From the IMG/VR virus record IMGVR_UViG_3300045988_139196: 64,000 nt of DNA; one strand, written 5' to 3'. Shown here in pieces: positions 5,650 through 62,085 of this stretch. The stretch is from a virus. The position numbers were made by a program, and so were the translations under genes. Each line of letters starts with the position of its first letter. The first letter of the stretch is position 1. The notes below the pieces were generated by a model. It ran no database searches. It worked only from the letters and a program-made list of their open reading frames with translations, and was not told the DNA's origin.

Positions 5650-6426
5650 TTAGTTTGTTGTATTACACTTTCTCAACATTCTAATAATTCCACTCTGACC
5701 CTTTGGCGTTACCATAGGAGTGAGTCCTATTCTGACTGCGCCATTCTGTATGTATGAGCTTTCTTTAAGCTGAAACCATGGCTGAGTGTCTATGTACCTT
5801 TGATAAGGCATATTCTTATGACCGTCCTTACAGCCTAACACTTTCTTTTCTCTCAAAAAATTAAATAGCCTTGTTCTGCCTATCTTTATTCCGTTCTTAG
5901 TTGCCAACTTTGCCATGTCGTTCATTGATATACAATCTTCAGAAGTTTGTATATGACTTGCAAAGTCCACAAGAGGTTTATCCTGCTCTATCTTATTATT
6001 AAGCTGTCTGATCGTTGATAGATTGAGCCTGAACAATTCTCTCGTCTGAGCATCGGCATTTGGCAGATAGGTGTTAATGAACATCTCGTCATTGGCTACA
6101 TAACCGCCTGTCTTGCGTATAGTCGGGAGAACTTCTGAAGTGACCCAACGTTTAAATGTTTTAGCCTTTGGTAGCTTACTTCCGAGAATAAGAGAATACA
6201 AGCCAGACTCATTAATGATAGTCATTGTTTGCTTTCCACCAAGGACGCCCTGAAATGGGGCGTCATTTTTATCATCATCATCAACGTGCCTTGCAATGGC
6301 ATTTCTTGCCTTTGTATACCCCAAAATCTCAGCCACATCTTTTCCGACAAACCAAGGCTCTCCGTCCTTAACTATTGTCCTCACTGTTCCAAATTCCTTG
6401 TTTGTGAATGTTTTAATTCCGTCCAT
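5650..6426 (-). CDS. phage antirepressor, Bro-N domain plus KilAC-like C-terminal domain
   Basis: FTNKEFGTVRTIVKDGEPWFVGKDVAEILGY..ARNAIARHVDDDDK..INESGLYSLILGSKLPKAKTFKRWVTSEVLP is a typical Bro-N sequence. C-terminal half is KilAC-like. Start set at MDGIK. Confidence 0.8.
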   Translation of the reverse strand: MDGIKTFTNKEFGTVRTIVKDGEPWFVGKDVAEILGYTKARNAIARHVDDDDKNDAPFQGVLGGKQTMTIINESGLYSLILGSKLPKAKTFKRWVTSEVLPTIRKTGGYVANDEMFINTYLPNADAQTRELFRLNLSTIRQLNNKIEQDKPLVDFASHIQTSEDCISMNDMAKLATKNGIKIGRTRLFNFLREKKVLGCKDGHKNMPYQRYIDTQPWFQLKESSYIQNGAVRIGLTPMVTPKGQSGIIRMLRKCNTTN

Positions 6427-6517
6427 TTTCTTTGTCCTTTCTGTTCTTAATTTACATTGTTGTTTGAAATTTCCTGCTTGCAAGCATAAAAATACACTAT
6501 TGTCAAAGAAATAGTTC

Positions 6518-6661: not shown

Positions 6662-6842
6662 ATTTGCCAACAATAGTTTTAGTTTCGTTTAGCCTTAGTA
6701 CCAATTCAAACTTGTCATCTACATACATTTTCATGAATGTTTCCAACAAATCGTTCATTTTAATGCCGTTAATAGCACATTTTGACTTGAACTGATTTTG
6801 AATTTCGCTGTCTATTGTTGTTGTGAACGGTTTTCTATCCAT
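6660..6842 (-). CDS. ribbon-helix-helix (Arc/CopG-like) DNA-binding protein
   Basis: 60 aa. KPFTTTIDSEIQNQFKSKCAINGIKMNDLLETFMKMYV fits a beta-alpha-alpha RHH pattern. First gene of the operon containing the antirepressor. Confidence 0.55.
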   Translation of the reverse strand: MDRKPFTTTIDSEIQNQFKSKCAINGIKMNDLLETFMKMYVDDKFELVLRLNETKTIVGK

Positions 6843-6870
6843 TATTATTTTCTCACCTGCCTTTTATTAT

Positions 6871-6899
6871 AGTATAATTTATTTTTATATGTTTGTCAA
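6871..6899 (-). promoter_or_regulatory. promoter of the RHH-ant-hicA operon
   Basis: Minus strand reads TTGACA-aacatataaaaataaat-TATACT with a 17-nt spacer. Confidence 0.55.
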
Positions 6900-7076
6900 C
6901 CATATAAAAATAAAAATCTTTCACAAAATTCTAGCGTATTTTTTGTTGAAATACACAATTTTAGTTTCTGAGATATTACACTTAAACCCTAAATCTTGAT
7001 TTTCAGCCTAAAATATGCTAAAATTTTCTTATAAAAAGTAATTCTAATTAATCTTAGAAATTGGAGGAAATAAAAA

Positions 7077-7736
7077 ATGAGCAAAATAAAATTAATTCTT
7101 ATCGCACTCATGACAATATTAGCATTGTCCTCATGTAATAGTAAAACAACAAGTTCCATATCTGACAGTAATTTCACTACCACTACAACAATTACAACAA
7201 CCACCACTCCCACAACAACTTCTCATACTTTGACAACAACCAAACCATCAACTACCACAACCACTTCCAAATCATCAACTACTACCACAACGACTACAAC
7301 CACAACGACAACTACAACTACCACGCATGATTATAGTTCTGAAATAAGTGCTTTAGAGCAAGAAAATAATCGCCTACAGGGTGAAATCTCCACCTATCAG
7401 AACGAAATAAACAATGAGCAATCTGATATTTCCATCTATGAAATCTATAAATCGGATGCCGAAGATGATGTTGAGGAGGCTAAAATACAGCTTGAAAACG
7501 CCAATAAGAAAATGGTTAAAGTTTATGGTGATGGCGGTTGGACTACAGAAGTTGACTCAGAAGCAGTTTCAAAGGCTCAATCTCACTTAGACGATTGCCA
7601 AAGAGTTGTTGACGTGTACAATGAACTTATATCAGAAAGTCAAAGTAATATTGATTATTATAACACTTGTATATCCAATAATCAAAGTTCCATTGAAAGC
7701 AATAATAGTCTTATAAACGATTATCGTAGCAGATAA
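7077..7736 (+). CDS. lipoprotein with a poly-Thr linker and C-terminal coiled coil
   Basis: Signal peptide with lipobox LALSSC, a Thr-rich low-complexity region of about 65 aa, then heptad-like SEISALEQENNRLQGEISTYQNEINN. Good RBS GGAGGAAATAAAAAATG. Confidence 0.7.
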   Translation: MSKIKLILIALMTILALSSCNSKTTSSISDSNFTTTTTITTTTTPTTTSHTLTTTKPSTTTTTSKSSTTTTTTTTTTTTTTTTHDYSSEISALEQENNRLQGEISTYQNEINNEQSDISIYEIYKSDAEDDVEEAKIQLENANKKMVKVYGDGGWTTEVDSEAVSKAQSHLDDCQRVVDVYNELISESQSNIDYYNTCISNNQSSIESNNSLINDYRSR

Positions 7737-8342: not shown

Positions 8343-8849
8343 ATGGTTGAACATGGCTTTTATATAATTGATGATTTATTCTTCAAGAAATTTAACGACC
8401 CTTTTCTAAAAGGAAATAAATCCGAAAATCGTCCTCATTACTATTGTTTTAAAGATACTAATGAAGGACTATATTGGATAATTCCTTTAAGCTCACGCAT
8501 TAACAAGTATCAAAAGATAATCAACCAACGCTTAAAAAATCATAAGCCATGTGATATATTACATATTTGTACTCTGAGCAATGGAAAACAAAGTGTATTT
8601 TTAATACAAGATATGTTTCCCATTACTCAAAAATATATCAAGCGTAAATATACCATTAATTCCAATCACCTCATTCTTAAAAATCAAAATGAAATACGAA
8701 TTATTAAACAAAAAGCTGAACGTATTCTTAATCAGATCAATCGAGGTCAACATTGTATTACAACTTGTGCCGATGTATTATCTATCAAAAAAGAACTGCT
8801 GTTAGAACTACAGATAGAAACTCAAACAGCGGACACTCTGACTTGTTGA
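8343..8849 (+). CDS. type III TA toxin, ToxN/AbiQ/CptN-like endoribonuclease
   Basis: FYIIDDLFFKKFNDPFLKGNK..NRPHYYCF..GLYWIIPLSSRINKYQKI..SVFLIQDMFPITQKYI has the ToxN/AbiQ family layout. The genetic context is the canonical type III TA arrangement. Confidence 0.7.
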   Translation: MVEHGFYIIDDLFFKKFNDPFLKGNKSENRPHYYCFKDTNEGLYWIIPLSSRINKYQKIINQRLKNHKPCDILHICTLSNGKQSVFLIQDMFPITQKYIKRKYTINSNHLILKNQNEIRIIKQKAERILNQINRGQHCITTCADVLSIKKELLLELQIETQTADTLTC

Positions 8850-8962: not shown

Positions 8963-9087
8963 AATTTACGCTTCGCAATGTGCGACACAGAAACATTGTA
9001 GATACAATTACGTTTCACAATGTACGGCAAAGTAACATTGTAGTATTCAATTTACGCTTCGCAATGTGCGACACAGAAACATTGTAG
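8963..9087 (+). ncRNA. type III antitoxin RNA: about 2.9 tandem repeats, 43-nt period
   Basis: Repeat 1 (8963-9001) and repeat 3 (9049-9087) are identical: AATTTACGCTTCGCAATGTGCGACACAGAAACATTGTAG. Repeat 2 (9006-9043) is a diverged copy. Confidence 0.7.
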
Positions 9088-20183: not shown

Positions 20184-20341
20184 GGTGTACTTGATTTACG
20201 CAAAGATCTTAATTTTGCTACTCATAATAATTGACCTCCTCAAAGTCTTAAAGTTGTATGTTGTATAACGTGTAAATAATGGTTATGGTATCCGCTCCAC
20301 CTCATGCGGTTTTGTGGATATAAGGGCGTATAAACGCCCCT

Positions 20342-20611
20342 TTAAGCGTGTAAATACGCTTCTTTTTGGCTCATTTTTGTAACGCTATTGGCAGCGTGCA
20401 AAACGCTTTGCGGGATTCTATAGCCACAAATAACGTATTTGTCAAGGCGTGTGCTATAGCCTATTGAATAGTTCCAGCCGTAAACACCAGCGTTATAATA
20501 ATTAGTGCTATCGGTATAGGCATCAATGCTGCTATCATCAACAAGAATAAGGTCTTGACCGCTGATTATATTTTTTGCATCCATGTTTGTGATTTTTTTT
20601 GATGTATACAT
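20342..20611 (-). CDS. hypothetical early protein (first gene of the leftward arm)
   Basis: Track ORF with RBS GGAGGTAATTTT (rc). Confidence 0.55.
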   Translation of the reverse strand: MYTSKKITNMDAKNIISGQDLILVDDSSIDAYTDSTNYYNAGVYGWNYSIGYSTRLDKYVICGYRIPQSVLHAANSVTKMSQKEAYLHA

Positions 20612-21358
20612 AAAATTACCTCCATTTTTTTGGTTTACGTTTGTTTTTTTGTTTTTTTGTTTTGTCTGTTGTCTTATTTCTTTTGTTTTACTGTTCTACA
20701 CTTGACTTTTTATTTCTTTTGTGTTATCTTAAAATATGGTTGATTAAATTCAGATCATTGCACTGGATTCAATCGTATAGCGGTTAAAATAACCGCTAAA
20801 AGTTTAGGTAAACTATTAGCAAGATCCCTTTTTTTATATCCCAGAAATTCGAAAAACTGGATTAAAAACATTTTGAGCCTATCGTTTTTAAGATTTTCAC
20901 CGCCTACATTTGACGTTGTTCAATTCGGTTTTAGCCGGTTCGTACGGTGAAATATTTGATTTTCAAGTTGCAAAAATTTATTACTAGCCGTCACATGACC
21001 TTGCAAAAGTCAACTAGATTTTTTGTTGTGCGGTTGTCAACTCTTTTCATTTTAGATTTTCCGCTTTTTAGTGCTAGCGGTAAACTTACTTGTATCTGGT
21101 AAAGGGTTTTGCTTTTTGGTTTTTGGTTTATTCCCTTCCCTTACTGTAATTATATTATAACACATGGCGTCATGTATTACAATTGACTTTTTGCACAAAC
21201 ATGGAGTCATGTATTTATATAACTTGCACACACAATATATAGTGCATATTATTGTATTTTTGAATGATAACCGCTATATATAGTGATACTATGATTTATA
21301 AACGAAACTAAAATATTTGTAAGAAGTTACAAATATATAATTGAAATGAGGTTTAAAA

Positions 21359-21559
21359 TTGGACAATATAAACAAAAAGAAGATAGAGTATAATGCTGCA
21401 TACACTGCCAAAAATTACAAAAAATTATCGGTTAATGTGAAGCCCACAGATTATGCGGCTATTGACAATTATTGTAAAAAATCAAATATTAGCAAAGCTA
21501 AATTTATTGTAAAATGTTGTAAACACTGTATAGATCATGATATTAGTTTTGATGATTAA
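21359..21559 (+). CDS. ribbon-helix-helix DNA-binding protein (TTG start)
   Basis: KKLSVNVKPTDYAAIDNYCKKSNISKAKFIVKCCKHCI fits a beta-alpha-alpha RHH pattern. RBS GAGG lies 9 nt upstream. It is the only ORF in the 3.3 kb central region. Confidence 0.45.
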   Translation: MDNINKKKIEYNAAYTAKNYKKLSVNVKPTDYAAIDNYCKKSNISKAKFIVKCCKHCIDHDISFDD

Positions 21560-21899
21560 CTAGACCACAATATATAGTTGTTAATACAGTATTTATTACT
21601 TGTAATACACAATATACAGTATGCTTATATCTTGAGTTATAAGGCTACTAGCAAGCGTTATATACTGTTGTATATATGGGTGGTATGTTATACTTGATAG
21701 CCGTTAAAATGAATTTTAGAGCATACAATATATAGTGGTATTATAGTGTGTTATATATCGTGAGCTTGCAAGCGGTGATATTGCAAGGGATCTTGACGTG
21801 TATATGTTTGTATGTATATATGTATGTGTACAAATATTTGGACTGTTGTAAACGTGATTTTATTGAAATAAGTGTACGATTTTTTGGACTTATAAGGAT

Positions 21900-22915
21900 C
21901 TTTGAATGATCCTTTACTAATGGTTGCTAGTCAATTTGCATAATTTTATTAGTTGATTTTGTGCAATTTGCTAGTTTAAAATAGGGATTGAGTATTGAAT
22001 TTAAAGTGTATTTTAGTGAGTATTTACCACTTTGGCGGTAAATATGGAGTGAAATAGGGAATTGATAGGTTAAAATATTAATATAAAATGTTCAAATTTT
22101 AAAGATGATGATTAAGGGCGTTCGGTATATCGAATAGTAACCACCGATAAATATATTTAGCAAAAATCAAATATTAATAATAAACAAATATACTAAAAGT
22201 CAATTATTAACTTAATCAATAATTGATAAAAATCAAATATTATAAAGTCAATTGAGCTTGTATGAAGTCGGTAGAAATTATATTAACATTCTATGAATTG
22301 TGATACAATTATTTATATATGTGTTTTTGGCAAAAAGGCATATAAACCACGCAAATAAGCGGTTTTATGAATATGGTAAAGTAATTAATTAAAAAGACTT
22401 GTAGGGGTATCTTTACATTTATGGGAACATATGGAAACAAGATTATCCCCTTAGTAGTTCCACTCTATCCACACGCCCCAAAACCAAATCTAAAATCAAA
22501 ATAGCACTTTTTAAAATTCCTGCACACTATCCCACTACCCCACCAAAAAACCAAATTTTCATTCGATAATGCGTTCGAGTAAACCTCGTATCTATGCCAT
22601 TTTTTAAACTTTTTCAAACCCAAAAATATACTTAAATACACCGAAACACACCAAAATTAACTTGTAAACATTATTTCTATACCATAAGAAAACAACCTAT
22701 CACTCCCAAAAAATACACTCCATTAAAGACTATAATAGGTCTTATTTTTTTGTCCTAAAATGGCTATAAATCTAGTTTTACACTTAAACAATCACTCATT
22801 TAAAATTCAATTTTAATTCACTGTCAACTTATTAAATTACACTTCAGAAATAATATACTATCACCGAAACATCTCAAAACAATAAAAAACCATCAAAAAA
22901 ATCATTTATAAAACT
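21900..22915. repeat. long degenerate inverted repeat with a strand-composition switch near 22440
   Basis: rc of 21900-22140 is collinear with 22555-22915 at roughly 65-75% identity by eye. Example: rc-left AACCTATCAATTCCCTATTTCACTCCAT vs right AACCTATCACTCCCAAAAAATACACTCCAT. Example: AATCAACTAATAAAATTA vs GTCAACTTATTAAATTA. The plus strand is G/T-rich to the left of ~22440 and C/A-rich and G-poor to the right. Confidence 0.55.
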
Positions 22916-23537
22916 CATAAAATAACCTATTGTAAAAACGAAAAAACGTTTTTACGCCTTGATTTACAAGCAAAAACAACGAATATGCTATCGTAATTTT
23001 ACCGAACGCTCCGAAATAAAATGCTTAGACGAAAACAAAATGTTTAAGTAGTTGCCAGACAACTCATGCAAACAATAATCTTTCAACTGAAAAAATATCT
23101 GTGAAGATTAGCGTGACCGTAGGGAACGATAATCAAACAGGGAAGTTATATACGAGCGTAGCGAGAATATAACTGACTAGCTGTGCGCAGCACAATAATA
23201 AATACAAAGCTTCTTCAATAACATAATGTCAATACATTATCATTAATTATCATTATCGGTCATTATCGCTTTATTGCTCAATAGATATAACCACCTTAAT
23301 AGATGTAATCACAATGATCTTCATTTTATGTTAGTTAATTTCATGTAAGTCATTTAATGTTCTATCCTACATTATTTAATTTTTAATTTCACTTTCCCTG
23401 AACCTCTCTTATTTTCTGATTTTTAAATTTTATTTCACTTGCCTTGGCTTATAACCTCTAAAAATGCAATTGACTTAATTGCCTCAATGTAAACAACAAA
23501 TTAACACAAAAGTTACATATTTATGTTCAACTCACTA

Positions 23538-23566
23538 TTGACACATCTCAAAAGTAGTAGTATAAT
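23538..23566 (+). promoter_or_regulatory. perfect consensus promoter for the rightward arm
   Basis: TTGACA (23538-23543), 17-nt spacer catctcaaaagtagtag, TATAAT (23561-23566). Confidence 0.65.
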
Positions 23567-23751
23567 AACCGTAGTATCTCAAAAGTAGCATACTAAACTT
23601 ATGATATTAATATATCATATTGATTATTAGTTGTCAACAAGAAATTTATTCCTGTAAACAATTAATATTTAGAAGAAAAAACCTACACGCTTTAGCGGGT
23701 AGGAAGGATTCTCTTATTACTAAAGATATCTAATATTATTCTACTCTACAC

Positions 23752-23826
23752 TTTGACCTACACTTTTAGTATACAGATTGCACACTTTTTTGCATTTTGA
23801 CCTACACTTTTGGTATACAGATTGCA
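23752..23826 (+). repeat. two 31-nt direct repeats (44-nt period), candidate operators or iterons
   Basis: TTTGACCTACACTTTTAGTATACAGATTGCA (23752-23782) and TTTGACCTACACTTTTGGTATACAGATTGCA (23796-23826) differ at one position. Confidence 0.7.
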
Positions 23827-23904
23827 AAAATGGCGGACTAACAATAAATGGAAGACAGCAATAAAAGGTGGTGACAAATCATAACTGACAATTATTTTGT
23901 AAAA

Positions 23905-24654
23905 ATGCCCAAGAAATATATATACGCTGACTCAGCAGACAACTTTGAAATTTTATTGTATCGCTGTCTTAGTTACCTATATGAAACTAGAACAAGGACG
24001 GTAGGTACATCTATAAATGAAATTTTGGAATTGTGTCATTGTTCCATTTATAGTAAAGGTAACAGAGAAAATACTCATAGGATAAAAGCACTTTTCAATA
24101 TTTTTATTGCTAGGTCAGATTTGACTTGGGACAACCAATGTGACTATAAATCATCAAATAATGTCAATGCAAACGCTCATTTAAGATTCAAGGTCAACAA
24201 AGCGGTGTTTGATCCTCCAGATAATTTCGTAATATTATACGACACAGAATGGGACAAACTAATGTCTATTTCAAATAGGCTGTCTAAGTCAATACTTCTT
24301 CGTGTTTACTTATACATAAAGTCATGGAACTTTCAGAATACAGAAATTATAACAGAGAGTGTTTGTGGTTGTTACAAGAAAGAAACGATAATGGCAGAAG
24401 AATTACATATGTCGGTCAGACAGTTAGACAACTATTTAAAGGCATTATGTGATAATGGGCTAATAGTCAAGCATATTACAGGCTCTTATATAAAGAATGG
24501 CAAGGTCTATAATGCTCCTAACGTTTATGTGCTTAGTTCAGATCTGAACGTACAACAACATATCCGAGAAGCTGTTGACAGACTAAAGTACACCTATAAG
24601 GTAGATGAATTTCTACCAATGACACATAAGAACAAGAAAATTAGAAAGGATTGA
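23905..24654 (+). CDS. putative winged-helix DNA-binding protein (replication organiser or regulator?)
   Basis: wHTH-like segment EELHMSVRQLDNYLKALCDNGLIVKH. First gene of the rightward arm, just downstream of the direct repeats. Confidence 0.35.
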   Translation: MPKKYIYADSADNFEILLYRCLSYLYETRTRTVGTSINEILELCHCSIYSKGNRENTHRIKALFNIFIARSDLTWDNQCDYKSSNNVNANAHLRFKVNKAVFDPPDNFVILYDTEWDKLMSISNRLSKSILLRVYLYIKSWNFQNTEIITESVCGCYKKETIMAEELHMSVRQLDNYLKALCDNGLIVKHITGSYIKNGKVYNAPNVYVLSSDLNVQQHIREAVDRLKYTYKVDEFLPMTHKNKKIRKD

Positions 24655-25505
24655 TAAACGTGATAGATAATAAGATTATAGTATTTGAAAACGAGGACTT
24701 TGGAGAACTTAGAACGGTTGAGATTGACGGAGAAGTTTGGTTTGTAGGTAAGGACGTGGCAATGATATTGGGTTATGGAAATGGAAAAGTTAAAAGTAAG
24801 GCTTTAGCTAACGCTATAAAAGATCATGTAGATATTGAAGATAAAAGGTTCTTAAACTATGATGAACTTAAAGCGTACCAAAATGGTGACCTTAAAAATA
24901 TTAGCCACTATGGAATGACAATTATAAATGAAAGCGGTCTATATTCTCTTGTATTTGGAAGTAAATTGTCAACCGCAAAGAATTTCAAACACTGGGTAAC
25001 TTCTGAGGTTCTTCCTTCACTTCGTAAAACTGGTACATATAATACGCAGGCTTTTGAAGAATTAAAAGCAGAGGTAATAAATCTCAAAGAAGAATTAGAG
25101 AAAAACAAATTACCCAAGAAAACATATAGTCCATGGTTTGGTCGTATGCACCCTAAATATAAATTAATAGAAGATAGTCTTGGTATTACTAGGGGTGCAT
25201 TGTATAGAGAAATTCTTAAAGAGCTTGCTAACAGATACGGACTTGATACATACCAAATAGAACAAGACTATTTGTATGAAAATTGTTTGGATAAATGTTA
25301 TCCTCTTGACCCATATCAGTGTGTTCCGCAATATCGCAATATGATAGAAGATATTATTAATGAGTATTTAATCAGTAACAGTTTAGCTGATAAAAACGAT
25401 ATTATTGCAACTAAGAAATATAAGACAATTTTTTCAAAAACTAATTCTAAGACTGATTTTAATGAGTCTTACTTTAACACAGAGGACGGTGAAAACAATG
25501 AGTAG
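24651..25505 (+). CDS. Bro-N domain antirepressor-like protein
   Basis: FENEDFGELRTVEIDGEVWFVGKDVAMILGY..INESGLYSLVFGSKLSTAKNFKHWVTSEVLPSLRKTG. Start is TTG at 24651 or GTG at 24660. Confidence 0.75.
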   Translation: MINVIDNKIIVFENEDFGELRTVEIDGEVWFVGKDVAMILGYGNGKVKSKALANAIKDHVDIEDKRFLNYDELKAYQNGDLKNISHYGMTIINESGLYSLVFGSKLSTAKNFKHWVTSEVLPSLRKTGTYNTQAFEELKAEVINLKEELEKNKLPKKTYSPWFGRMHPKYKLIEDSLGITRGALYREILKELANRYGLDTYQIEQDYLYENCLDKCYPLDPYQCVPQYRNMIEDIINEYLISNSLADKNDIIATKKYKTIFSKTNSKTDFNESYFNTEDGENNE

Positions 25506-25668
25506 AAATCGCAAAACAACTTCTTTACAACAACTATTCCCTGAAGATTATATATACGAGGTTCAGGACAAGCCTTTAGACGACAATGAAGAATATTTAA
25601 GGTTTCGCAGTGAGTATTGGACTATGCTGGCTGAAACTGACGATACATACAAAGAAGATTATATGTAA
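25498..25668 (+). CDS. hypothetical small acidic protein
   Basis: Start moved to the ATG at 25498 after GAGGACGGTGA. Confidence 0.45.
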   Translation: MSRNRKTTSLQQLFPEDYIYEVQDKPLDDNEEYLRFRSEYWTMLAETDDTYKEDYM

Positions 25669-25691
25669 GATAAAATAAAGGAGACAACAAA

Positions 25692-26396
25692 ATGAACAAT
25701 TTGAAACTTGTAGAAACAGACATATTTAATGAAATCGCAACTTGTGACTTTTGGGGTAACGCCAACAATGAGTATCTTGTCACAAGAGAACAGATTGGTA
25801 GAGCATTGGGCTATAGTAATCCTGCAAATGCAATTAAAAATATCCATTTAAAGCATAAAGAAAGGTTAGATAAATTTTCAACTCAGCTCACTTCAAAACA
25901 AATTGAAGGAAATAGACAGATTGAGCGTAAAAGAACATTTTATAATTTACAAGGTGTTTTACTTATCATTCAATATTCACAAGTACCTGAGCAATTAAAA
26001 GAAAATTTATTGACAAAAATCAAAAGCAAAATGGGTAATAAGGAAATCGTTGTAATTACAGAACGCAAAGAATTGAATTTTATTAATGATTTGGAGGAGA
26101 TTTTGTCAGTTTTTCTGATTAAAGGAATCAGACAATTTCGCATAGGAAATAAATATAGAATCGACTATTACATTCCCACTATAAAAGTTGCCATTGAATA
26201 TGATGAAAATTCTCACAAGCTTTACAACCAAGATGAAGAAATAATGCGTGAAACTTTTATAAAAGAGCAATTAGGTTGTAAATTTATTAGGATATCAGAC
26301 GATTACAATAATAATAAAGGAATAGGTCTAGTCATAAAGAAATTAATAAATTGGGGTATTTTAAAATCAGGACTGGAGGTAATGAACAATGCCTAG
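25692..26396 (+). CDS. antirepressor-like N-terminal domain fused to a PD-(D/E)xK (DUF559/Vsr-like) nuclease-like domain
   Basis: N-terminus FWGNANNEYLVTREQIGRALGYSNPANAIKNIHLKH. C-terminus YRIDYYIPTIKVAIEYDENSH..FIRISD resembles the D..(E/A)xE..H core of Vsr/DUF559-type nucleases. Confidence 0.5.
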   Translation: MNNLKLVETDIFNEIATCDFWGNANNEYLVTREQIGRALGYSNPANAIKNIHLKHKERLDKFSTQLTSKQIEGNRQIERKRTFYNLQGVLLIIQYSQVPEQLKENLLTKIKSKMGNKEIVVITERKELNFINDLEEILSVFLIKGIRQFRIGNKYRIDYYIPTIKVAIEYDENSHKLYNQDEEIMRETFIKEQLGCKFIRISDDYNNNKGIGLVIKKLINWGILKSGLEVMNNA

Positions 26397-26640
26397 ACTA
26401 ACAAAACTTACAGAGAGTGAGTATGCCAATGGTGTATTCGCAGAAGCCAAAAGAATAAACAATAACGAGACAATTCGTAAACAACCGCCTACAGAACAGC
26501 AAGTTAGATTGTGTCTTAGAGTGTTAAGAGATTTTCACATACATATAAACAAGGATAATATTCCTAGATTTAAAAGTGTTCAGGAATTAGAGCTTTGGCA
26601 AAAGAAAATGATACACAATAAATTATATGACAATAACTAA
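26389..26640 (+). CDS. hypothetical protein
   Basis: Track ORF that overlaps the upstream stop by 8 nt (translational coupling). Confidence 0.5.
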   Translation: MPRLTKLTESEYANGVFAEAKRINNNETIRKQPPTEQQVRLCLRVLRDFHIHINKDNIPRFKSVQELELWQKKMIHNKLYDNN

Positions 26641-26659
26641 AACGGAAAGGTAGATTAAA

Positions 26660-27697
26660 ATGACAGAAAACAACAAAACTATGGTAACAGTATTTGAGAG
26701 CAAAGATTTTGGCAAGGTAAGAACGGTAGATATTGATAACAAGATTTACTTTTGCGGTTCTGATGTGGCAAAGGCGTTGGGGTATTCAAGACCAGCGGAC
26801 GCAATAACATCTCATTGTAAAGGGGTCTGCGTTTTACCGACCCCTTCGGCTGGAGGTGTACAGAAAACAAAATTCATTTCAGAGGGTGACGTTTATCGTC
26901 TTATAGCACATAGTAAACTCCCTTCCGCAGAACGCTTTGAGAGTTGGATATTTGACGAGGTACTTCCAACTATACATAAAACAGGCAGTTATATTGCGGC
27001 AGGCTCGGAAAAAGACAATGAACTAAAACTATTGCAAGCTACGGTTACTCAGCTTCAGAATATGTTACTTGCATTATCGGCTAAGAAAATACCAAATGAA
27101 AAAGCTTTGAACATATGGAAGAAACAAATTAGCACTCCGCTTATAGTGAAGTTACAGGATAATGCTTTACGAACTACAGGTGAGGTTGTTGAGTTTGCAG
27201 ATATGCTACATAGAGTTTATACTCAAATGACTTCAATGTTTGGCTTTTGTACTGTTACGGCTCTTAGTGAGTTTACAGATAAGTACAATTGTGATTGTAC
27301 TACAATACAGCCAAGTATTATAAATGCTATTGCGGATAATCATGTATATCAGGCTTGGTTTACTCAGGCTTGTAATCAGCTTATGATTTGTGTAGGTAAT
27401 GGGGATAGGTTTACATCTGACGATGGTTGTACTTATAATGCTACACAGTTTACTTTAGAGGACAGCTTTGATTTTATTGCTTACACACTGGCAGAGGTTA
27501 TGAATGATAGATCGGCTCATCATGCACACACGCTGTCTATGGTTTATAAGAAGATAAACTCCACGAGAGGTTGGCATAATCAAATGACTAGGAAGAAGGC
27601 AAAGACTAAGAAAGATGTAATATTGTCTGATAGAAAACAGTTTACTAAATTTGTGTTAGCTAGCAATGAAATTATAAAGGAATTGAGAAGGAGTTAA
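26660..27697 (+). CDS. Bro-N domain protein with an unknown C-terminal domain
   Basis: FESKDFGKVRTVDIDNKIYFCGSDVAKALGYSRPADAITSHCK..ISEGDVYRLIAHSKLPSAERFESWIFDEVLPTIHKTG. Confidence 0.75.
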   Translation: MTENNKTMVTVFESKDFGKVRTVDIDNKIYFCGSDVAKALGYSRPADAITSHCKGVCVLPTPSAGGVQKTKFISEGDVYRLIAHSKLPSAERFESWIFDEVLPTIHKTGSYIAAGSEKDNELKLLQATVTQLQNMLLALSAKKIPNEKALNIWKKQISTPLIVKLQDNALRTTGEVVEFADMLHRVYTQMTSMFGFCTVTALSEFTDKYNCDCTTIQPSIINAIADNHVYQAWFTQACNQLMICVGNGDRFTSDDGCTYNATQFTLEDSFDFIAYTLAEVMNDRSAHHAHTLSMVYKKINSTRGWHNQMTRKKAKTKKDVILSDRKQFTKFVLASNEIIKELRRS

Positions 27698-34516: not shown

Positions 34517-34592
34517 TGTCGGATAGCTCAATCGGTAGAGCAATGCACTGTTAATGCGGAGGTCGTGAGTTCGAGTCTCACTCTGACAGCCA
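34517..34592 (+). tRNA. tRNA-Asn (anticodon GUU), CCA encoded
   Basis: TGTCGGATAGCTCAATCGGTAGAGCAATGCACTGTTAATGCGGAGGTCGTGAGTTCGAGTCTCACTCTGACAGCCA. Acceptor TGTCGGA/TCTGACA, anticodon loop CTGTTAA, T-arm GTGAGTTCGAGTCTCAC. Confidence 0.8.
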
Positions 34593-34944: not shown

Positions 34945-35931
34945 ATGGCTAAGAAAAGCAAACGTATTCAAGTACATGATGATGAAATACTTTCAAAAAT
35001 CAATTCTGAAACAATGAAACTATGGAACAAATATAAAATTGATATGTCACTTAGAGAACTCTCCGAAAAGACTATCGCAGGCTATCAAAATGATTTAGAG
35101 TCTTGGTGGATATACATATATAAAAATCAGGGCAACCAAAGTATTGTTGATCTGACGGAAGATGATATAACTGAATTTTTATATTTTTGTAAAACTGAGG
35201 GTAATAATTCAAGACGTATGAAAAGGCGTATGGCTTCAATTTCAGCTTTTTATAAATTTCTGCGTAAGAAGAAGTTAATTACAGAAAACCCAATGGAATT
35301 TATGGATAGACCTAAGAAAGATACAGATGTTATTACTCAGACGTTTTTAACTGTTGAACAGGTGCAGGAATTAAGAATTGCCTTGCAAAACTTAGTAGAA
35401 AACGCTGACACACATCATAAGAAACATAGGGCTTTACAATATCAGTGTTATGCTCTATTTTCATTATCTACAATGGCTAGGGTTAATGCGGTTGCGAATA
35501 CTAAGTGGGAACAAATTGATTTTGACAATAGGGTTGTCAATGATGTAGTTGAAAAAGAAGGCTACGTTGTAACTCTTTATTTTTCGGAAGAAGTTAAAGA
35601 ACTGTTGTTAGGTTTGCTTGAGTACCGCAAGACAAATAATATTATTGACAATGGCTATGTTTTTGTTTCTTATACAGACGGAAAGTTTGATAAGGTAACT
35701 AATGGCACATTAAATTCTTGGTGTCATATTATTGGTGAAATGATTAATGTTCCAACGCTACACGCTCACGATTTTCGTCATTCGGGAGCTACGCTATATA
35801 AAAACGCAGGTATGTCACTAGAAGATGTTTCGGCATTGCTCAACCATAGTGGAACTGACGTGACAAGAAAATTTTATATTAGGGTTGATAAAAAGAAAAT
35901 TAGCCAGAATAAGGATAAATTTGATTTTTGA
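34945..35931 (+). CDS. tyrosine recombinase (XerC/D-like integrase with SAM-like N-terminal domain)
   Basis: N-terminal core-binding-like region (SEKTIAGYQNDLESWW..ISAFYKFL). Catalytic HDFRHSGATLY and LLNHSGTDVTRKFY. Confidence 0.75.
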   Translation: MAKKSKRIQVHDDEILSKINSETMKLWNKYKIDMSLRELSEKTIAGYQNDLESWWIYIYKNQGNQSIVDLTEDDITEFLYFCKTEGNNSRRMKRRMASISAFYKFLRKKKLITENPMEFMDRPKKDTDVITQTFLTVEQVQELRIALQNLVENADTHHKKHRALQYQCYALFSLSTMARVNAVANTKWEQIDFDNRVVNDVVEKEGYVVTLYFSEEVKELLLGLLEYRKTNNIIDNGYVFVSYTDGKFDKVTNGTLNSWCHIIGEMINVPTLHAHDFRHSGATLYKNAGMSLEDVSALLNHSGTDVTRKFYIRVDKKKISQNKDKFDF

Positions 35932-36007: not shown

Positions 36008-37099
36008 TTGATTACGCCAAGGAAAAAAGTAAAAACCCCTGTAAGTACAAAAATATGTACAGAATGTGGCAAGGAAAAACCACTGTCACAATTTTATACT
36101 ACTAGAAATAGTAATATTTCTACTGATGGCAAAACGGTAAATATATGTAAGTCTTGTGTTAAAAAGGGTTCTTATAATTCTGATGGAAGCTTAAATATAG
36201 AAGCGTTCCAAAAGAAACTAATGTTAATGGATAAACCATACATACCAGAAGCTCTTGACTCTGCTATGAGTGAAGTAAGAAGATCATTAGAATTGGGCAA
36301 GGGTAGAACCGATATTATAGGCTGTTATTTTAAGAATGTGTCAACATTGCCACAGTATACGAAATTATCTTTTTTGGACTCTATGAATTTGTTTAATCAA
36401 GGCAAGTCTATTACTGAGGCAGTAACTACAACGGAAAAACGCAATATACTTCCTCGAAACGAAGAAGTATATGTAAATATGGTTGATGATTTTGTTGTTA
36501 CAAACGATATTACCGACTTATTTGGCGAGGGGTACACAAAATCACAGTACCGAAAAATGAAGAAAAAGTTTGATAAATTAAAAGAAAACTACTCAATTCA
36601 AACAAACTTACACGAGGAAGCTTTAGCAACCTATGTTCGTTTTAAGGTGAAAGAGGAAGAAGCCACAGCAGCAGGAGATGTTGGAAGTGCTGACAAATGG
36701 AATAGAGCTGCCCAAGATGCTGCTGATAAAGCAAAGTTGACTCCAAAACAATTAACGCAGGCTGATTTGCAAGGTGGAGTAACTTGCATTTCGGAAATAT
36801 CAAAAGCTTGTGAACAAGCGGTTGATATTGTTGAAATATTACCTAAGTTTAAGTACCAACCTAACGATGCTCCTGATTTTATAATATGGTGCTATATTAA
36901 CTATGCTAGAAAATTAAAAGGATTACCTAAGTGTGAGTATAAGGAAGTGTACCAATTTTATGACGACATGAAGAATGAGTACATTTCTCAGTATGGAGAT
37001 CCCTATGGTATTTTTACTGATGATACATCGGAAAAAAATAGGAGTTCTGTTGAAACGTTTATAAAACTGCCAAAAGATTATGAGAATGGTGACAAGTAA
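36008..37099 (+). CDS. Zn-ribbon protein, candidate small terminase subunit (by position)
   Basis: CTECGK..CKSC near the N-terminus. Lies immediately upstream of the large terminase and overlaps it. TTG start after GGAGGTGG. Confidence 0.35.
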   Translation: MITPRKKVKTPVSTKICTECGKEKPLSQFYTTRNSNISTDGKTVNICKSCVKKGSYNSDGSLNIEAFQKKLMLMDKPYIPEALDSAMSEVRRSLELGKGRTDIIGCYFKNVSTLPQYTKLSFLDSMNLFNQGKSITEAVTTTEKRNILPRNEEVYVNMVDDFVVTNDITDLFGEGYTKSQYRKMKKKFDKLKENYSIQTNLHEEALATYVRFKVKEEEATAAGDVGSADKWNRAAQDAADKAKLTPKQLTQADLQGGVTCISEISKACEQAVDIVEILPKFKYQPNDAPDFIIWCYINYARKLKGLPKCEYKEVYQFYDDMKNEYISQYGDPYGIFTDDTSEKNRSSVETFIKLPKDYENGDK

Positions 37100-40077
37100 T
37101 GAACTGGCAAAGAATAAAAGATTTTGAAAAAAATAGTGATAGTGTATTTGGCAAAAATCTACATAATTATTACACTTTTATAAGTTGGGCTAAGTGGTAT
37201 CCTGATTTATTACTCGACTTAATGAAACCTGAAACAGGTGGGTTAAATCTGCATTTAGATCAACGCATATTTTTGCGTTGTGACGTTAGATTTATGAGTA
37301 TGTATGGAACGTTTAGCCGTGGATATGGTAAATGCGTAAGTGGAGACACTATGTTATTTACCGATGAGGGTATTAAAGAGATTGGTGAATATTTTAATTA
37401 TCAAAATAACGATGTAGAAACCTATTATCCTACACACGCAAGGGTTGTAAATAGATATGGTAACTTAGAATGTTCAACTTTAGGTCTTTATAATGGTAGA
37501 AAAAATACTATAAAACTGACAGATAGTAAAGGTTATTCTATAACAGCCACCCCTAATCATAGAGTACTTGTTATGAAATCAAATGGAAGTGTAGATTTTG
37601 TAAAAACAGAAGATATAAAGATTGGCGATTATTTGGTTATTAATCGCAAAAATAATATCTGGGGTAATAATAATAAAGTTGAATATAAAAATGAAATTGG
37701 TGCATATGTAGAAAGCTTATCTCAACAATCACGTTCACATTTGAATATCAGAGCAATGCCAGATGGAATTACATCTCAATTAGCATTGATTTATGGATAT
37801 TTGATTGGAGACGGTTGTATGACTTCAAAAAATACAATTATCTTTACTAATATAGGTGATGAGATATTAGACAAGTTTAAAAATATTACGCAGAAATATT
37901 TTAACGTTGATGTCAAAAAAAGAAGTGACAATAATTACGACTATGAAATTAATGACACTTATTTAAGAAAATATCTCGAAATTATAGGATTTGATTATAG
38001 TAGATCATATGATAAAAAAGTACCTAAATCTATAATGGTAGCTAGTAAAGATGTTGTGTCAGCATTTTTACAAGGCTTATTTGACACAGATGGTACAGTA
38101 GACAATAAAATTATATCTTTAACAACAGTGTCGGAAAAGTTGGCAAATCAAGTTCATTTTTTATTACTGAATTTTGGTATTGTTTCTAAACTAAGTATTA
38201 AGAAAACAAAAAGTAAATTTGGTAAAGCATATCAAATTTGCATATCGGGGAACGATGTTGGTATTTTTAAATCTGAAATTGGTTTTGGTTTAAAGAAAAA
38301 GGCTGATAAACTTGATAAGTTGTGCAATAAAAAACATAACACAAATACAGACATAATACCATATCAGAACGAATTAGTTAAATCTGTACTTAATGAATTG
38401 AATTTACATTGGAGCGTTTCAAGGGAGTTCAATCATATTACAAGTGGAGAATGTGATTTAACGTATTCTAAATTAGATAGGTTAATTGCTCTATTGAACG
38501 AAAAGGGAGTTGCAAATAACACTTTAAACGAGTTGTATGCAACTCATTATTTTTATAGTCCTGTTGTTAATATTGAACATACTGTTTCAGATACATATGA
38601 TTTTCATTTACCTCAAACACATTCATTTGTGAGTAATGGAATTATAAGTCATAACACATTTGACGAGGTACTTGCTATGGTCGTAGTAGCAATGCTGTTC
38701 CCAAATATTGAATTGGCTCTTTCTGCGCAGACTAAAGAAAATGCGGCAGATTTATTGAAATCAAAGTGGAATGAAATTGTAAAATTATATCCACTTTTAA
38801 AGGACGAAATAAGAGAAGCTAGGTTTTCAAAGGGAAATGCTTATATTGAATTTAAAAATGATGCGACCATAGATGCTATTGCAAATGCTCAAAGCACAAA
38901 GGGTCAAAGACGTAGAAGGTTAAAAATAGAGGAATCCGCATTGCTAAATAATGCACTGTTTCAAGATGCTCTTGAGCCTGTAGTTGAAGTTCCAAGACTT
39001 ACGGTTGGCAGACTTGCGATAGTAGACCCAATGGAACTTAATCAGCAAATTCATTTTTTTACAACGGCAGGATTTAGGGGTTCAGACGAATATCAGCGTA
39101 GTATTTCAATGTTAGATGATATGGAAAATCTAAAGGGAAAAATAGTTTTGGGAAGCAACTGGCAACTTCCGTGTTGGTATGGTAGGGGAAGTAATAAAAG
39201 CAAAATACTTTCAAAGAAGAAAAATTCTTCTGTTGTAGCCTTCGCCCAGAACTATGAACAAGAATGGGTCGGCTGTGCTGACGGTGCGTTGGTTAATATT
39301 AATAAACTAATGAATTGCCGTACTCTAACGGAAGCGGTTTTACAAAATCCAGATCCAGAACAAGAATATTATATGGGTGTTGACGTGGCAAGAAGCCAAA
39401 AAACTTCTAATAACCAATCTTCTATTGCTGTAGTGCGTGTAATTAGAAGTAAGGATAAAGGGAGAATTATTTACATTGATGTGGTGAATATCATTAATAT
39501 TCCTAACGTACTTAATTTTAATGCCCAAGCTGCTATTATCAAAAAAGTTCAAAAACTTTATATGGCTAAAGTAGTTGTATTAGATGCTAATGGACTTGGT
39601 GTTGGATTGGCTGATGAACTTTTAAAAGACACGATTGACAATTCTACAGGTAAGGACTTGGGCTGTTGGGACACTATTAATGACGATAATGTTCCAGAAG
39701 TTCCTAACTCACCACAAATACTTTACAATATGAAAGCTCAGACTTGGCAAAATGAAATTGTAAGCACTTTTATAGATATGGTGGATAGTGGCAAACTTAG
39801 ATTGCTGGAAAAAAGACAAGATAATGATTTTACCGATAATGAATGGGATAGTTTTGACGAGAAAGTTAGACCTTTTATTGAGACAGATGCTTTTATTGAA
39901 GAAGCTGCGAATTTAAAGATGAAACATCTTAATAACGGCAACATTACTATTGAACAAGTTGTAAAAAAAGTAAATAAGGATAGAGTTTCGGCATTGATCT
40001 ATGTGTTGTGGTACGTTAATAAATATGCTCAAGACATAAATAACGATGAATACGATTATTGTTGTTTATTCAATTAA
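37099..40077 (+). CDS. terL: terminase large subunit, interrupted by an intein in the Walker A loop
   Basis: The exteins join as FSRGYGK|TFDEVLAMV, giving a P-loop GYGKT. Walker B-like LKIEES follows, then a nuclease-domain-sized C-terminus. Size without the intein is 551 aa. Confidence 0.75.
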   Translation: MNWQRIKDFEKNSDSVFGKNLHNYYTFISWAKWYPDLLLDLMKPETGGLNLHLDQRIFLRCDVRFMSMYGTFSRGYGKCVSGDTMLFTDEGIKEIGEYFNYQNNDVETYYPTHARVVNRYGNLECSTLGLYNGRKNTIKLTDSKGYSITATPNHRVLVMKSNGSVDFVKTEDIKIGDYLVINRKNNIWGNNNKVEYKNEIGAYVESLSQQSRSHLNIRAMPDGITSQLALIYGYLIGDGCMTSKNTIIFTNIGDEILDKFKNITQKYFNVDVKKRSDNNYDYEINDTYLRKYLEIIGFDYSRSYDKKVPKSIMVASKDVVSAFLQGLFDTDGTVDNKIISLTTVSEKLANQVHFLLLNFGIVSKLSIKKTKSKFGKAYQICISGNDVGIFKSEIGFGLKKKADKLDKLCNKKHNTNTDIIPYQNELVKSVLNELNLHWSVSREFNHITSGECDLTYSKLDRLIALLNEKGVANNTLNELYATHYFYSPVVNIEHTVSDTYDFHLPQTHSFVSNGIISHNTFDEVLAMVVVAMLFPNIELALSAQTKENAADLLKSKWNEIVKLYPLLKDEIREARFSKGNAYIEFKNDATIDAIANAQSTKGQRRRRLKIEESALLNNALFQDALEPVVEVPRLTVGRLAIVDPMELNQQIHFFTTAGFRGSDEYQRSISMLDDMENLKGKIVLGSNWQLPCWYGRGSNKSKILSKKKNSSVVAFAQNYEQEWVGCADGALVNINKLMNCRTLTEAVLQNPDPEQEYYMGVDVARSQKTSNNQSSIAVVRVIRSKDKGRIIYIDVVNIINIPNVLNFNAQAAIIKKVQKLYMAKVVVLDANGLGVGLADELLKDTIDNSTGKDLGCWDTINDDNVPEVPNSPQILYNMKAQTWQNEIVSTFIDMVDSGKLRLLEKRQDNDFTDNEWDSFDEKVRPFIETDAFIEEAANLKMKHLNNGNITIEQVVKKVNKDRVSALIYVLWYVNKYAQDINNDEYDYCCLFN
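37333..38655 (+). mobile_element. 441-aa intein with a LAGLIDADG homing endonuclease domain
   Basis: Starts CVSGDTMLFT (Cys1), block B is TPNHRVLV, LAGLIDADG motifs are LIYGYLIGDGCM and FLQGLFDTDGTV, and it ends FVSNGIISHN followed by the +1 Thr. Confidence 0.8.
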
Positions 40078-61935: not shown

Positions 61936-62085
61936 ACAAGCTAACGTAGGTATGTACCGTAGGCTATACGGGAATTTACGCCTGTGGACTATACAAGAAC
62001 TTGTGAGTAGTCTTATGACAAAAGCATATAGGTTGAAGCAGGAATTTTCTCGATATGGATATATTTGTCCATATTTTGAGTAGCA
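61880..62085 (+). ncRNA. predicted omega-RNA (reRNA) scaffold of TnpB; boundaries approximate
   Basis: Inferred from the known TnpB architecture (scaffold overlaps the tnpB 3' end and the IS right end). A hairpin ATATGGA/TCCATAT lies at 62054-62076. Confidence 0.3.

Follow-up and report, generated by a model that had tools for sequence, protein, structure and literature searches.

A predicted chromosome-end and packaging-start region, flanked by mirrored G-poor tracts, in an SPbeta-like phage of the gut

A Non-Coding Gap between Divergent Gene Arms

We analyzed a 64,000-nucleotide (nt) stretch of viral DNA, IMG/VR record IMGVR_UViG_3300045988_139196, which is called the window in what follows and has a G+C content of ~33% overall. 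Its genes form a leftward arm (404-20611) and a rightward arm (from 23905) that diverge at a 3.3-kb gap, and near the centre of this gap the strand composition switches abruptly. From comparisons with related and better-studied phages, we consider it probable that the gap centre is the region where the chromosome ends and packaging starts in an SPbeta-like temperate phage, which the window shows with its ends joined, as a prophage, circle or concatemer.

The rightward arm encodes a YonO-type RNA polymerase (Table 1) that is 42-45% identical to the YonO proteins of SPbeta, Psychrobacillus phage Perkons and Clostridium phage D-1873. This gene identifies the window phage as SPbeta-like and gives the region its orientation. 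Further right in the same arm are genes for a protease, PhoH, an exonuclease, a tyrosine-recombinase-like protein, the large terminase and the portal protein, and a sliding clamp is among the products of the leftward arm. The first rightward gene has a 96%-identical copy in a Hominimerdicola aceti genome. The window phage is an SPbeta-like temperate phage of a gut clostridial host, carried as a prophage in Hominimerdicola aceti. Known phages have no nucleotide similarity to the window at blastn sensitivity. Comparisons within the group were made with 48 related loci from IMG/VR, of which 34 entered the alignment used to assess substitutions and conservation.

An earlier note on this DNA, made from the sequence alone, had described the gap as almost free of open reading frames (ORFs), and this description holds. 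Between 20612 and 23904 there is no ORF of 70 amino acids (aa) or more, and a 66-aa ORF is the only plausible gene. Substitutions show no 3-nt periodicity in any 150-nt window from 20640 to 23900; in a flanking gene, the same 34-locus alignment places 66% of the variability at third codon positions. Hidden coding was rejected on the lack of both ORFs and codon periodicity in substitutions. A search of Rfam 15 returned no family match in 20300-24300, even at E values up to 1, apart from a chance match to mir-1993 (E of 0.23). The gap is nonetheless a stable feature of the group. It measures 3.2-4.7 kb in every relative that has both flanks, and its core (21550-23200) is found in 42-46 of the 48 loci, more often than many of the neighboring genes.

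Table 1. Features in and around the gap, with positions in the window
Feature	Position	Strand	Basis or composition
Upstream control region of leftward (early, replication) arm	20612-21160		palindrome AGCGGTTAAAATAACCGCT at 20777-20795; several (A)GCGGT words
Small ribbon-helix-helix (Arc/NikA-like) gene, 66 aa	21359-21559	+	points towards terminal block
Near-palindromic 12-mer ACAATATA(T/C)AGT, three copies	21567, 21609, 21725 (21567-21736)	+	fourth copy at 21232, upstream of the ribbon-helix-helix gene
Left sub-terminal tract, G/T-rich and C-poor	21600-22199	+	A.34, C.087, G.197, T.377
Predicted terminal block (short direct terminal repeat or pac block)	22200-22455		homology with 251-bp SPbeta block and 264-bp Perkons repeat
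Conserved boundary motif, 72 nt, GGGG(G)TAT-N-TTTACAT-TA ... CC-TAG(T/C)^A-TTCCA ... CACAC (caret, block edge)	22402-22473	+	profile and alignment
Right sub-terminal tract, C/A-rich and G-poor, outward towards YonO	22456-23000	+	A.42, C.224, G.061, T.295
Most conserved non-coding block	23001-23200		higher G+C; small hairpins at 23143-23173 and 23179-23190
Allelic promoter/operator module	23200-23700		promoter scan 12/12 and 11/12
Two 34-nt direct repeats, 44 nt apart	23749-23826	+	repeat family D5, 94% identical
Winged-helix protein, 249 aa, first gene of rightward arm	23905-24654	+	PHROG/Pfam matches
YonO-type single-subunit two-barrel RNA polymerase, 891 aa	28159-30834	+	Pfam RdRP 3.5e-15; phrog_8308 8e-232

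An Abrupt Switch in Strand Composition

The composition switch is both real and extreme. In 200-nt windows, GC skew ranges from +0.33 to +0.48 over 21600-22100 and from -0.40 to -0.61 over 22400-22900, with the two extremes falling within 21700-22100 (+0.48) and 22500-22900 (-0.61). The 500-nt window beginning at 22451 has the minimum skew (-0.60) and the minimum G content (5.6%, against a mean of 17.7%) of all 64 kb, and successive 60-nt segments from 22441 contain only 4, 2, 7, 2, 4, 4, 2, 1 and 6 G residues. The cumulative G-C maximum is at 22434, and G+C content is only 22-23% over 22100-22400. The earlier note was correct that both sides are C/A-rich and G-poor when read outward, and no other property of the region is as well conserved. 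For the window as a whole, cumulative GC skew does change direction here, with a minimum at 23-24 kb, and the arm-wide change in polarity tracks gene orientation.

A long degenerate inverted repeat had also been proposed, with arms at about two-thirds identity, but sequences shuffled to keep the composition reach nearly the same alignment scores. Locally, the reverse complement of 21800-22440 aligns with the segment 22441-23100 at a best score of 28, compared with 26.9 ± 3.1 for dinucleotide shuffles, 104 of 300 of which score as high. Gapped alignment of the claimed arms yields 155/217 identities and a score of 37 (shuffles, 31.4 ± 3.7). When an unrelated neighboring G/T-rich stretch is used as a control, it gives 149/190 identities, a higher value than that of the claimed arms. 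The apparent identity arises because two C/A-rich sequences are being compared. A pair of diverged non-coding transcripts, which was one of three roles suggested for the region, rested on this compositional artefact, although the tracts themselves may be transcribed.

A second skew minimum lies elsewhere in the window. The second most negative 500-nt GC skew (-0.43 to -0.46) occurs at ~6800-7400, at another strand switch, where a leftward gene (5650-6483) faces away from a rightward block that begins at 7077.

A Boundary Motif Shared with Mapped Phage Ends

More distant relatives made it possible to locate a conserved element at the switch point. Loci L063, L066 and L061 (YonO 72% identical) and L052 (a neighboring protein 42% identical) do not align with the window, and the sole nucleotide-alignable island lies near 22452-22500. 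Their own gaps nevertheless have the skew pattern of the window. A shared motif at the switch point came to light from the L063 gap and the gap between yonP and yonR of SPbeta. Approximately 30 variable bases separate TTTACAT-TA from CC-TAG, and the distance from GGGG to the block edge is fixed at 52 nt, such that the motifs of the window, SPbeta, Perkons and L063 align without gaps over this interval. An nhmmer profile built from these four sequences matches the window only at the motif (E of 6e-12), recovers exactly one site in each relative and finds nothing further in 2.4 Mb. Visual inspection of L052 also reveals the motif, again at the 52-nt spacing.

The significance of this motif derives from two phages whose ends have been mapped. 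In SPbeta, the genome-opening, or pac, site is located between yonR and yonP (Kohm et al., bioRxiv 10.1101/2021.11.22.469490; Fink & Zahler 1982 cited therein). The ~250-bp “pac-site region” (251 bp) starts with GCTATGGGTACATCTG... / GCTATGGGTACATCTGTTCCC... (Kohm et al. supplement, bioRxiv 10.1101/2021.11.22.469490), and packaging starts at the far end of this block and proceeds towards yonP (bioRxiv 10.1101/2021.11.22.469490). The reverse complement of the first 55 bases of the SPbeta block is the boundary motif, with the elements GGGGGTATATTTACAT...CCCATAGC and the block edge at ...CCCATAGC^ACTTCC. Perkons (MT325768) has short direct terminal repeats (DTRs) of 264 bp that were defined by PhageTerm from virion reads (PMC13245101), and its DTR ends with ...GGGGGTAT...CCCTAAGC^TCATCTATCCACAC. 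The edge computed from the motif model falls exactly on base 264, the annotated end of this repeat. The window likewise contains the yonO-proximal edge sequence GGGGGTAT...TTTACAT...CC.TAG(C/T)^, and its YonO-type polymerase gene sits downstream of the predicted block, on the packaging side.

An exact 14-mer scan of viral contigs with TAGTAGTTCCACTC gave mostly chance matches, and it added four relatives (L121, L152, L172 and L163). In L052, a tandem duplicate of a promoter-like unit (TTGTCAACATATTGTTTACTATAAT) is present at 8527-8600, immediately to the left of the predicted terminal block, into which it reads.

The Predicted Terminal Block

By homology with the SPbeta and Perkons blocks, the right edge of a terminal block is predicted between 22455 and 22456 of the window, where it coincides with the composition flip. 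The left edge is uncertain, roughly 22120-22264, and was not resolved by alignment with SPbeta, Perkons and the L063 group; one related contig begins at the window equivalent of 22264. The BUCT083 record is circular, and its ends are uninformative on termini. The predicted block is AT-rich, its skew is near zero in all relatives, and it sits in the non-coding gap between the leftward genes and the rightward genes.

The arrangement resembles that of SPbeta in several respects. The SPbeta pac block also lies between a divergent early arm and the YonO/late arm (yonR versus yonP/yonO), has the edge motif with identical internal spacing, and is followed by a G-poor tract towards yonP/yonO, with a stretch of opposite skew on the other side. 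However, the SPbeta gap is only ~950 bp with tracts of ~200-400 nt, whereas the window has a 3.3-kb gap with tracts of 550-600 nt and extra regulatory modules. The two phages do not have the left-edge sequence in common, their nucleotide similarity is limited to the motif, and their hosts differ (Bacillus versus a gut clostridial bacterium). Perkons similarly encodes YonO and has DTR ends with the same motif and mirrored G-depleted tracts inside them. Its termini were established from virion reads, whereas those of the window are predicted, and the skew maximum at its left end is displaced 300-450 nt inward from the repeat instead of adjoining it.

Several observations weigh against assigning a genome end to the gap centre. 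The motif was not found in D-1873, L067 or L068 within the stretches examined. The distal block edges of SPbeta (CTTCGATTCCC...) and Perkons (CTTACGCTATTCCC...) lie ~250-264 bp away from the motif edge, and the left-edge word of these two phages, CTT.CG..ATTCCC, is absent from the window, with nothing similar 190-340 nt upstream of the edge. The region is also located mid-contig in almost all of the related metagenomic contigs. In addition, the SPbeta authors read their block as a pac site with headful packaging while Perkons is annotated with a DTR, so that either cutting mechanism may apply. Two further points concern the tracts that flank the block: only the right tract folds unusually weakly, the left one being average, and tract diversity is near neutral (0.6-0.9 times that of four-fold sites), so that selection on composition is a tentative reading.

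If the assignment is correct, the terminase would cut concatemers during lytic growth at the edges of a ~200-330-bp block that ends at 22455, and packaging would move to the right, in the direction of YonO and the late genes, as it does in SPbeta. The block would then be present at the ends of virion DNA, bordered on its inner side by the C-poor tract at one end and by the G-poor tract at the other. The 5′-ending strand would be C/A-rich with 5-9% G, and the 3′-ending strand G/T-rich, at both termini. The left arm would be packaged last and, by the usual last-in first-out rule, might be first into the next host. Such an order of entry fits the early, replication-related content of this arm.

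A bidirectional replication origin was another of the roles originally suggested. In this explanation, the switch marks an AT-rich unwinding region flanked by initiator sites, and the skew change reflects the divergence of leading strands. In its favor are the low G+C content at 22100-22400, the two 34-nt direct repeats that precede the winged-helix gene, the weak match of the 249-aa product of that gene to a replication-initiator PHROG, and the minimum that cumulative GC skew reaches at 23-24 kb of the window. However, the AT-rich stretch and the repeats are 1.3 kb apart rather than adjoining, and the arm-wide polarity tracks gene orientation. Moreover, the local skew is opposite to that of leading strands leaving an origin, since C far exceeds G outward on both sides, and the region has no DnaA-box cluster, with one 8/9 match in all. 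The switch point also coincides with the motif that marks the mapped genome ends of SPbeta and Perkons. We therefore regard an origin at the switch as very improbable. An origin at another place in the gap, such as the 23749-23826 repeats, is possible. Of the three roles suggested, the packaging region is the one that the data support, through the homology of the motif with the SPbeta and Perkons edges; the origin is not supported, and the paired transcripts were suggested by a compositional artefact.

A genome terminus or pac block of the SPbeta kind is a known type of feature, and the window provides a further member. For an uncultured and abundant group of gut phages (at least 48 related contigs), it supplies a predicted packaging start and genome end, which should help in orienting genomes, in assessing their completeness and in predicting transduction. 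It also links the “250-bp pac block” of SPbeta and the “short DTR” of Perkons through one conserved edge motif. This link suggests that SPbeta-like phages of distant Firmicutes process their ends by a common mechanism, and it identifies the bases to target by mutation.

Mirrored G-Poor Tracts beside the Block

The composition of the DNA on either side of the block is conserved in places where its sequence is not. In every relative examined, both flanks of the block are depleted of G over 200-600 nt (5-9% G, read outward), even where the sequences cannot be aligned, as is true for the tracts of the window and of the L063 group. The left tract of the window, read outward on the minus strand, is C/A-rich and G-poor, and relatives have the same sign of skew. 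The skew profile is constant among ~40 distinct sequences. Values of +0.3 to +0.5 are found over 600 nt, from 900 to 300 nt upstream of the edge, values of about +0.1 over the last 300 nt that precede the edge, and values of -0.55 to -0.72 over the first 550 nt beyond it. In five gut-phage representatives of two lineages, the window family and the L063 group, the G-C change point and the predicted edge are no more than 48 nt apart; in SPbeta, L052 and Perkons, the change point falls within the block or close to it. When eight tracts are read outward, their A contents are.32-.43, with C of.16-.29, G of.05-.09 and T of.24-.36. In Perkons, the tracts are found just inside each repeat copy at the two physical ends, in mirror orientation, and the 5′-ending strand of virion DNA is thus poor in G at both ends. 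These mirrored tracts are present in SPbeta itself, which is a tractable model, and appear to have gone unremarked in the literature.

Nucleotide diversity (pi) is 0.104 in the left tract, 0.100 in the central block and 0.084 in the right tract, compared with 0.11-0.165 at the four-fold sites of three flanking genes and 0.052 at codon positions 1 and 2. Thus, these non-coding tracts evolve slightly more slowly than four-fold sites and are only mildly constrained in sequence, whereas the adjacent segment 23001-23200 is strongly constrained. Single strands of the right tract fold weakly, at about -7 kcal/mol per 200 nt compared with a background of -15.6 ± 4.3. No reiterated word is strongly over-represented across the eight tracts, the best being CCTAT and TCAAA at ~2-3 times expectation.

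Phage T7 offers a partial parallel. Its DTR is 160 bp long, and next to the left copy come ~200 nt of non-coding DNA that is rich in C and A and poor in G (skew of -0.5 to -0.57), after which the early promoters begin. The short-repeat arrays beside the T7 terminal repetition were reportedly named SRL and SRR by Dunn and Studier in 1983. The T7 tracts are arrays of CCTAAAG, whereas no repeated word explains the tracts of the window, and sub-terminal heptamer arrays of the T7 type can be set aside as an explanation. The T7 right end is not mirrored, having a skew of -0.2 on the same strand, and T7 has no sequence or terminase relationship with the window.

Because the tracts evolve almost neutrally, a mutational origin of their composition is a serious alternative. 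The 3′-ending strands beside the ends would be single-stranded for longer and could lose C by deamination, as in the vertebrate mitochondrial heavy strand, and unconstrained spacer DNA would show this loss fully. Such a footprint would account for a 3′-ending strand that is T/G-rich and C-poor at both ends, and for the lack of skew in the repeat, which is exposed in both orientations. It also agrees with tract evolution that is nearly as fast as that of four-fold sites and with the lack of sequence conservation between subgroups. On the other hand, the tract edges are sharp, with skew of ~0 at 23000-23200, and in Perkons the skew does not peak at the positions closest to the end. No clear gradient is seen at four-fold sites in the nearest genes, although these data are noisy, the polymorphism spectrum shows no striking asymmetry, and the magnitude of 0.6-0.9 is far above the skew elsewhere in the window. 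On balance, we judge a mutational footprint to be unlikely.

It is also conceivable that the region is transcribed into long non-coding RNAs, either C/A-rich and directed outward or G/U-rich and converging on a hairpin at 22404-22453, which would regulate the lysis-lysogeny switch or packaging. The region is non-coding and yet is retained in all 48 relatives, promoter-like sites number 39 versus 26 expected, and the tandem promoters of L052 read into the block. Furthermore, a small RNA candidate, ncr1052, has been reported in the yonR-yonP gap of SPbeta, co-oriented with yonP. In T7, pausing of the phage RNA polymerase at the concatemer junction assists packaging. Conversely, there is no match to an Rfam family at E values up to 1, folding is weak in the right tract and close to the window background in the left, and diversity is near neutral without alignability between subgroups. 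In the window, L063 and SPbeta alike, the strongest sigma-70-type promoters of the right arm lie farther downstream than the tract, and the inverted repeat behind the idea of paired transcripts is an artefact. Long non-coding RNAs from this region thus appear quite improbable.

We tentatively prefer a role for the tracts at the level of composition. This preference is based on the sharpness of the tract edges and the lack of a gradient at neighboring four-fold sites. What is selected might be composition rather than sequence, since strands without G or without C cannot form G-C hairpins. Single-stranded 3′ tails, generated beside the repeat by end replication or 5′ resection, would stay open and might help the repeats anneal for circularization and concatemer formation. 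Also with low confidence, the tracts could instead act on RNA: a transcript leaving the end region in either direction would be untranslated, C-rich, G-poor and unstructured, and hence a substrate for Rho, such that the tracts insulate the two arms. In either case, whether as strands kept free of structure for annealing or as two-way Rho-loading insulators, the tracts would constitute a selected, composition-defined, telomere-like element of SPbeta-like ends. We offer this as a possibility that is somewhat less likely to be right than wrong. The likeness to telomeres may reside in the asymmetry itself, as the 3′-ending strand would be G/T-rich and nearly free of C at both ends, from phages of Bacillus to those of gut Clostridia, despite turnover of the sequence.

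Control Modules around the Core

The remainder of the gap looks like ordinary control modules of the divergent arms, comprising the ribbon-helix-helix (RHH) gene with its 12-mers, a promoter/operator cassette and direct repeats. In the control region of the leftward arm, 20700-20990 is 91-95% identical in the 34 relatives, and the palindrome AGCGGTTAAAATAACCGCT, which had been noticed earlier, has conserved stems and a variable loop. The short reiterated words pointed out with it are also present and over-represented. GCGGT occurs 9 times versus 1.6 expected, AAAAATCAAATATTA occurs three times (once inside the small ORF and otherwise at 22162 and 22228), and CACCGAAACA occurs twice.

Nearly all copies of (A)GCGGT are left of the predicted end (20779-22359). 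The pentamer AGCGG is the Chi sequence of B. subtilis, and the plus-strand copies have an orientation in which they would face an exonuclease entering from the predicted right terminus. A function as Chi sites is at most a side possibility: correctly oriented copies occur only on the left side, and the SPbeta tract has none.

The product of the 66-aa ORF has weak matches to an Arc-like repressor PHROG (0.009) and a NikA-like Pfam family (0.004), and equivalent small RHH-like ORFs occupy the same position in L063 and L052. Four copies of the 12-mer ACAATATATAGT surround this gene (5 window matches versus 1.2 expected). They are more than 90% conserved and are candidate operators or -10 elements.

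Two gap segments exist as unrelated alleles, namely 21160-21560, which holds the RHH gene and its promoter, and 23200-23700. The first occurs as several alleles, with identity across relatives of only 64-75%. The second has two unrelated alleles, each with its own repeated word, and the word of the alternative one is TTAAACGAGTAC. Such a further allele with another word would be expected for immunity variation, and the two segments are possibly immunity-specificity modules. Among close relatives (loci L001-L048), the alleles of the two segments are not strictly linked.

Within the second segment, a perfect sigma-70-type promoter at 23538-23566 (plus strand) faces a promoter at 23637-23609 (minus strand). 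Two putative ATCTCAAAAGTAG operators, at 23545 and 23576, lie at the rightward promoter, and a hairpin followed by a T-run is found on the minus strand at ~23676-23706. A near-copy of the 23538-23588 cassette (TTGACAcATCTCAAAAGTAGtagTATA.T) is present at 2539-2600 on the minus strand, directly upstream of a tRNA-Leu/Lys/Gln cluster, and its second operator is 31 nt further on. The word ATCTCAAAAGTAG therefore occurs as pairs spaced by 31 nt at both sites (23545/23576 and 2539/2570), which suggests that one repressor controls several early promoters, as MrpR does in SPbeta. The SPBRE operators of MrpR include one at the yonP promoter, and as in the window, a short operator word is reiterated at several early promoters (PMC10516654). 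The window word differs from SPBRE, relatives have a second allele with another word, and the likeness concerns the flanking module rather than the terminal block.

Between the right tract and this module, 23001-23200 is 98% identical across relatives, with pi of 0.060 (similar to that of codon positions 1 and 2), and 48 of 50 columns are invariant at 23100-23150. Folding of 23030-23215 is unremarkable (z-scores of -1.8 and -1.2), and the segment has no Rfam match. The two 34-nt repeats upstream of the first rightward gene have a core that varies between relatives, and they are candidate binding sites for the winged-helix product. This 249-aa protein weakly matches PHROGs for a replication initiation protein (3e-6) and a DnaD-like loader as well as Pfam HTH_45, and a 42%-identical homologue is labelled “predicted transcriptional regulator” by JGI. 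It could be a regulator or an initiator-like protein.

Other Features of the Window

Immediately behind the first rightward gene, three paralogous Bro-N (anti-repressor-like) genes are arranged in tandem (24651-27697). A tyrosine-recombinase-like gene (34945-35931) is located within the late arm beside tRNA-Asn (34517-34592), and could encode an integrase or an MrpR-like repressor with a recombinase fold. The 992-aa large terminase ORF (37099-40077) holds an intein with a LAGLIDADG homing endonuclease. Two plus-strand Rfam matches exceed the gathering score, a Fusobacteriales-1 RNA at 8964-9085 (88.7 bits) and a RAGATH-18 RNA at 61981-62044 (69.4 bits). In SPbeta (L050, 1153-2835, minus strand), the 1.7-kb gap between yonN and yonK is G+C-rich (40-47%) relative to the phage.

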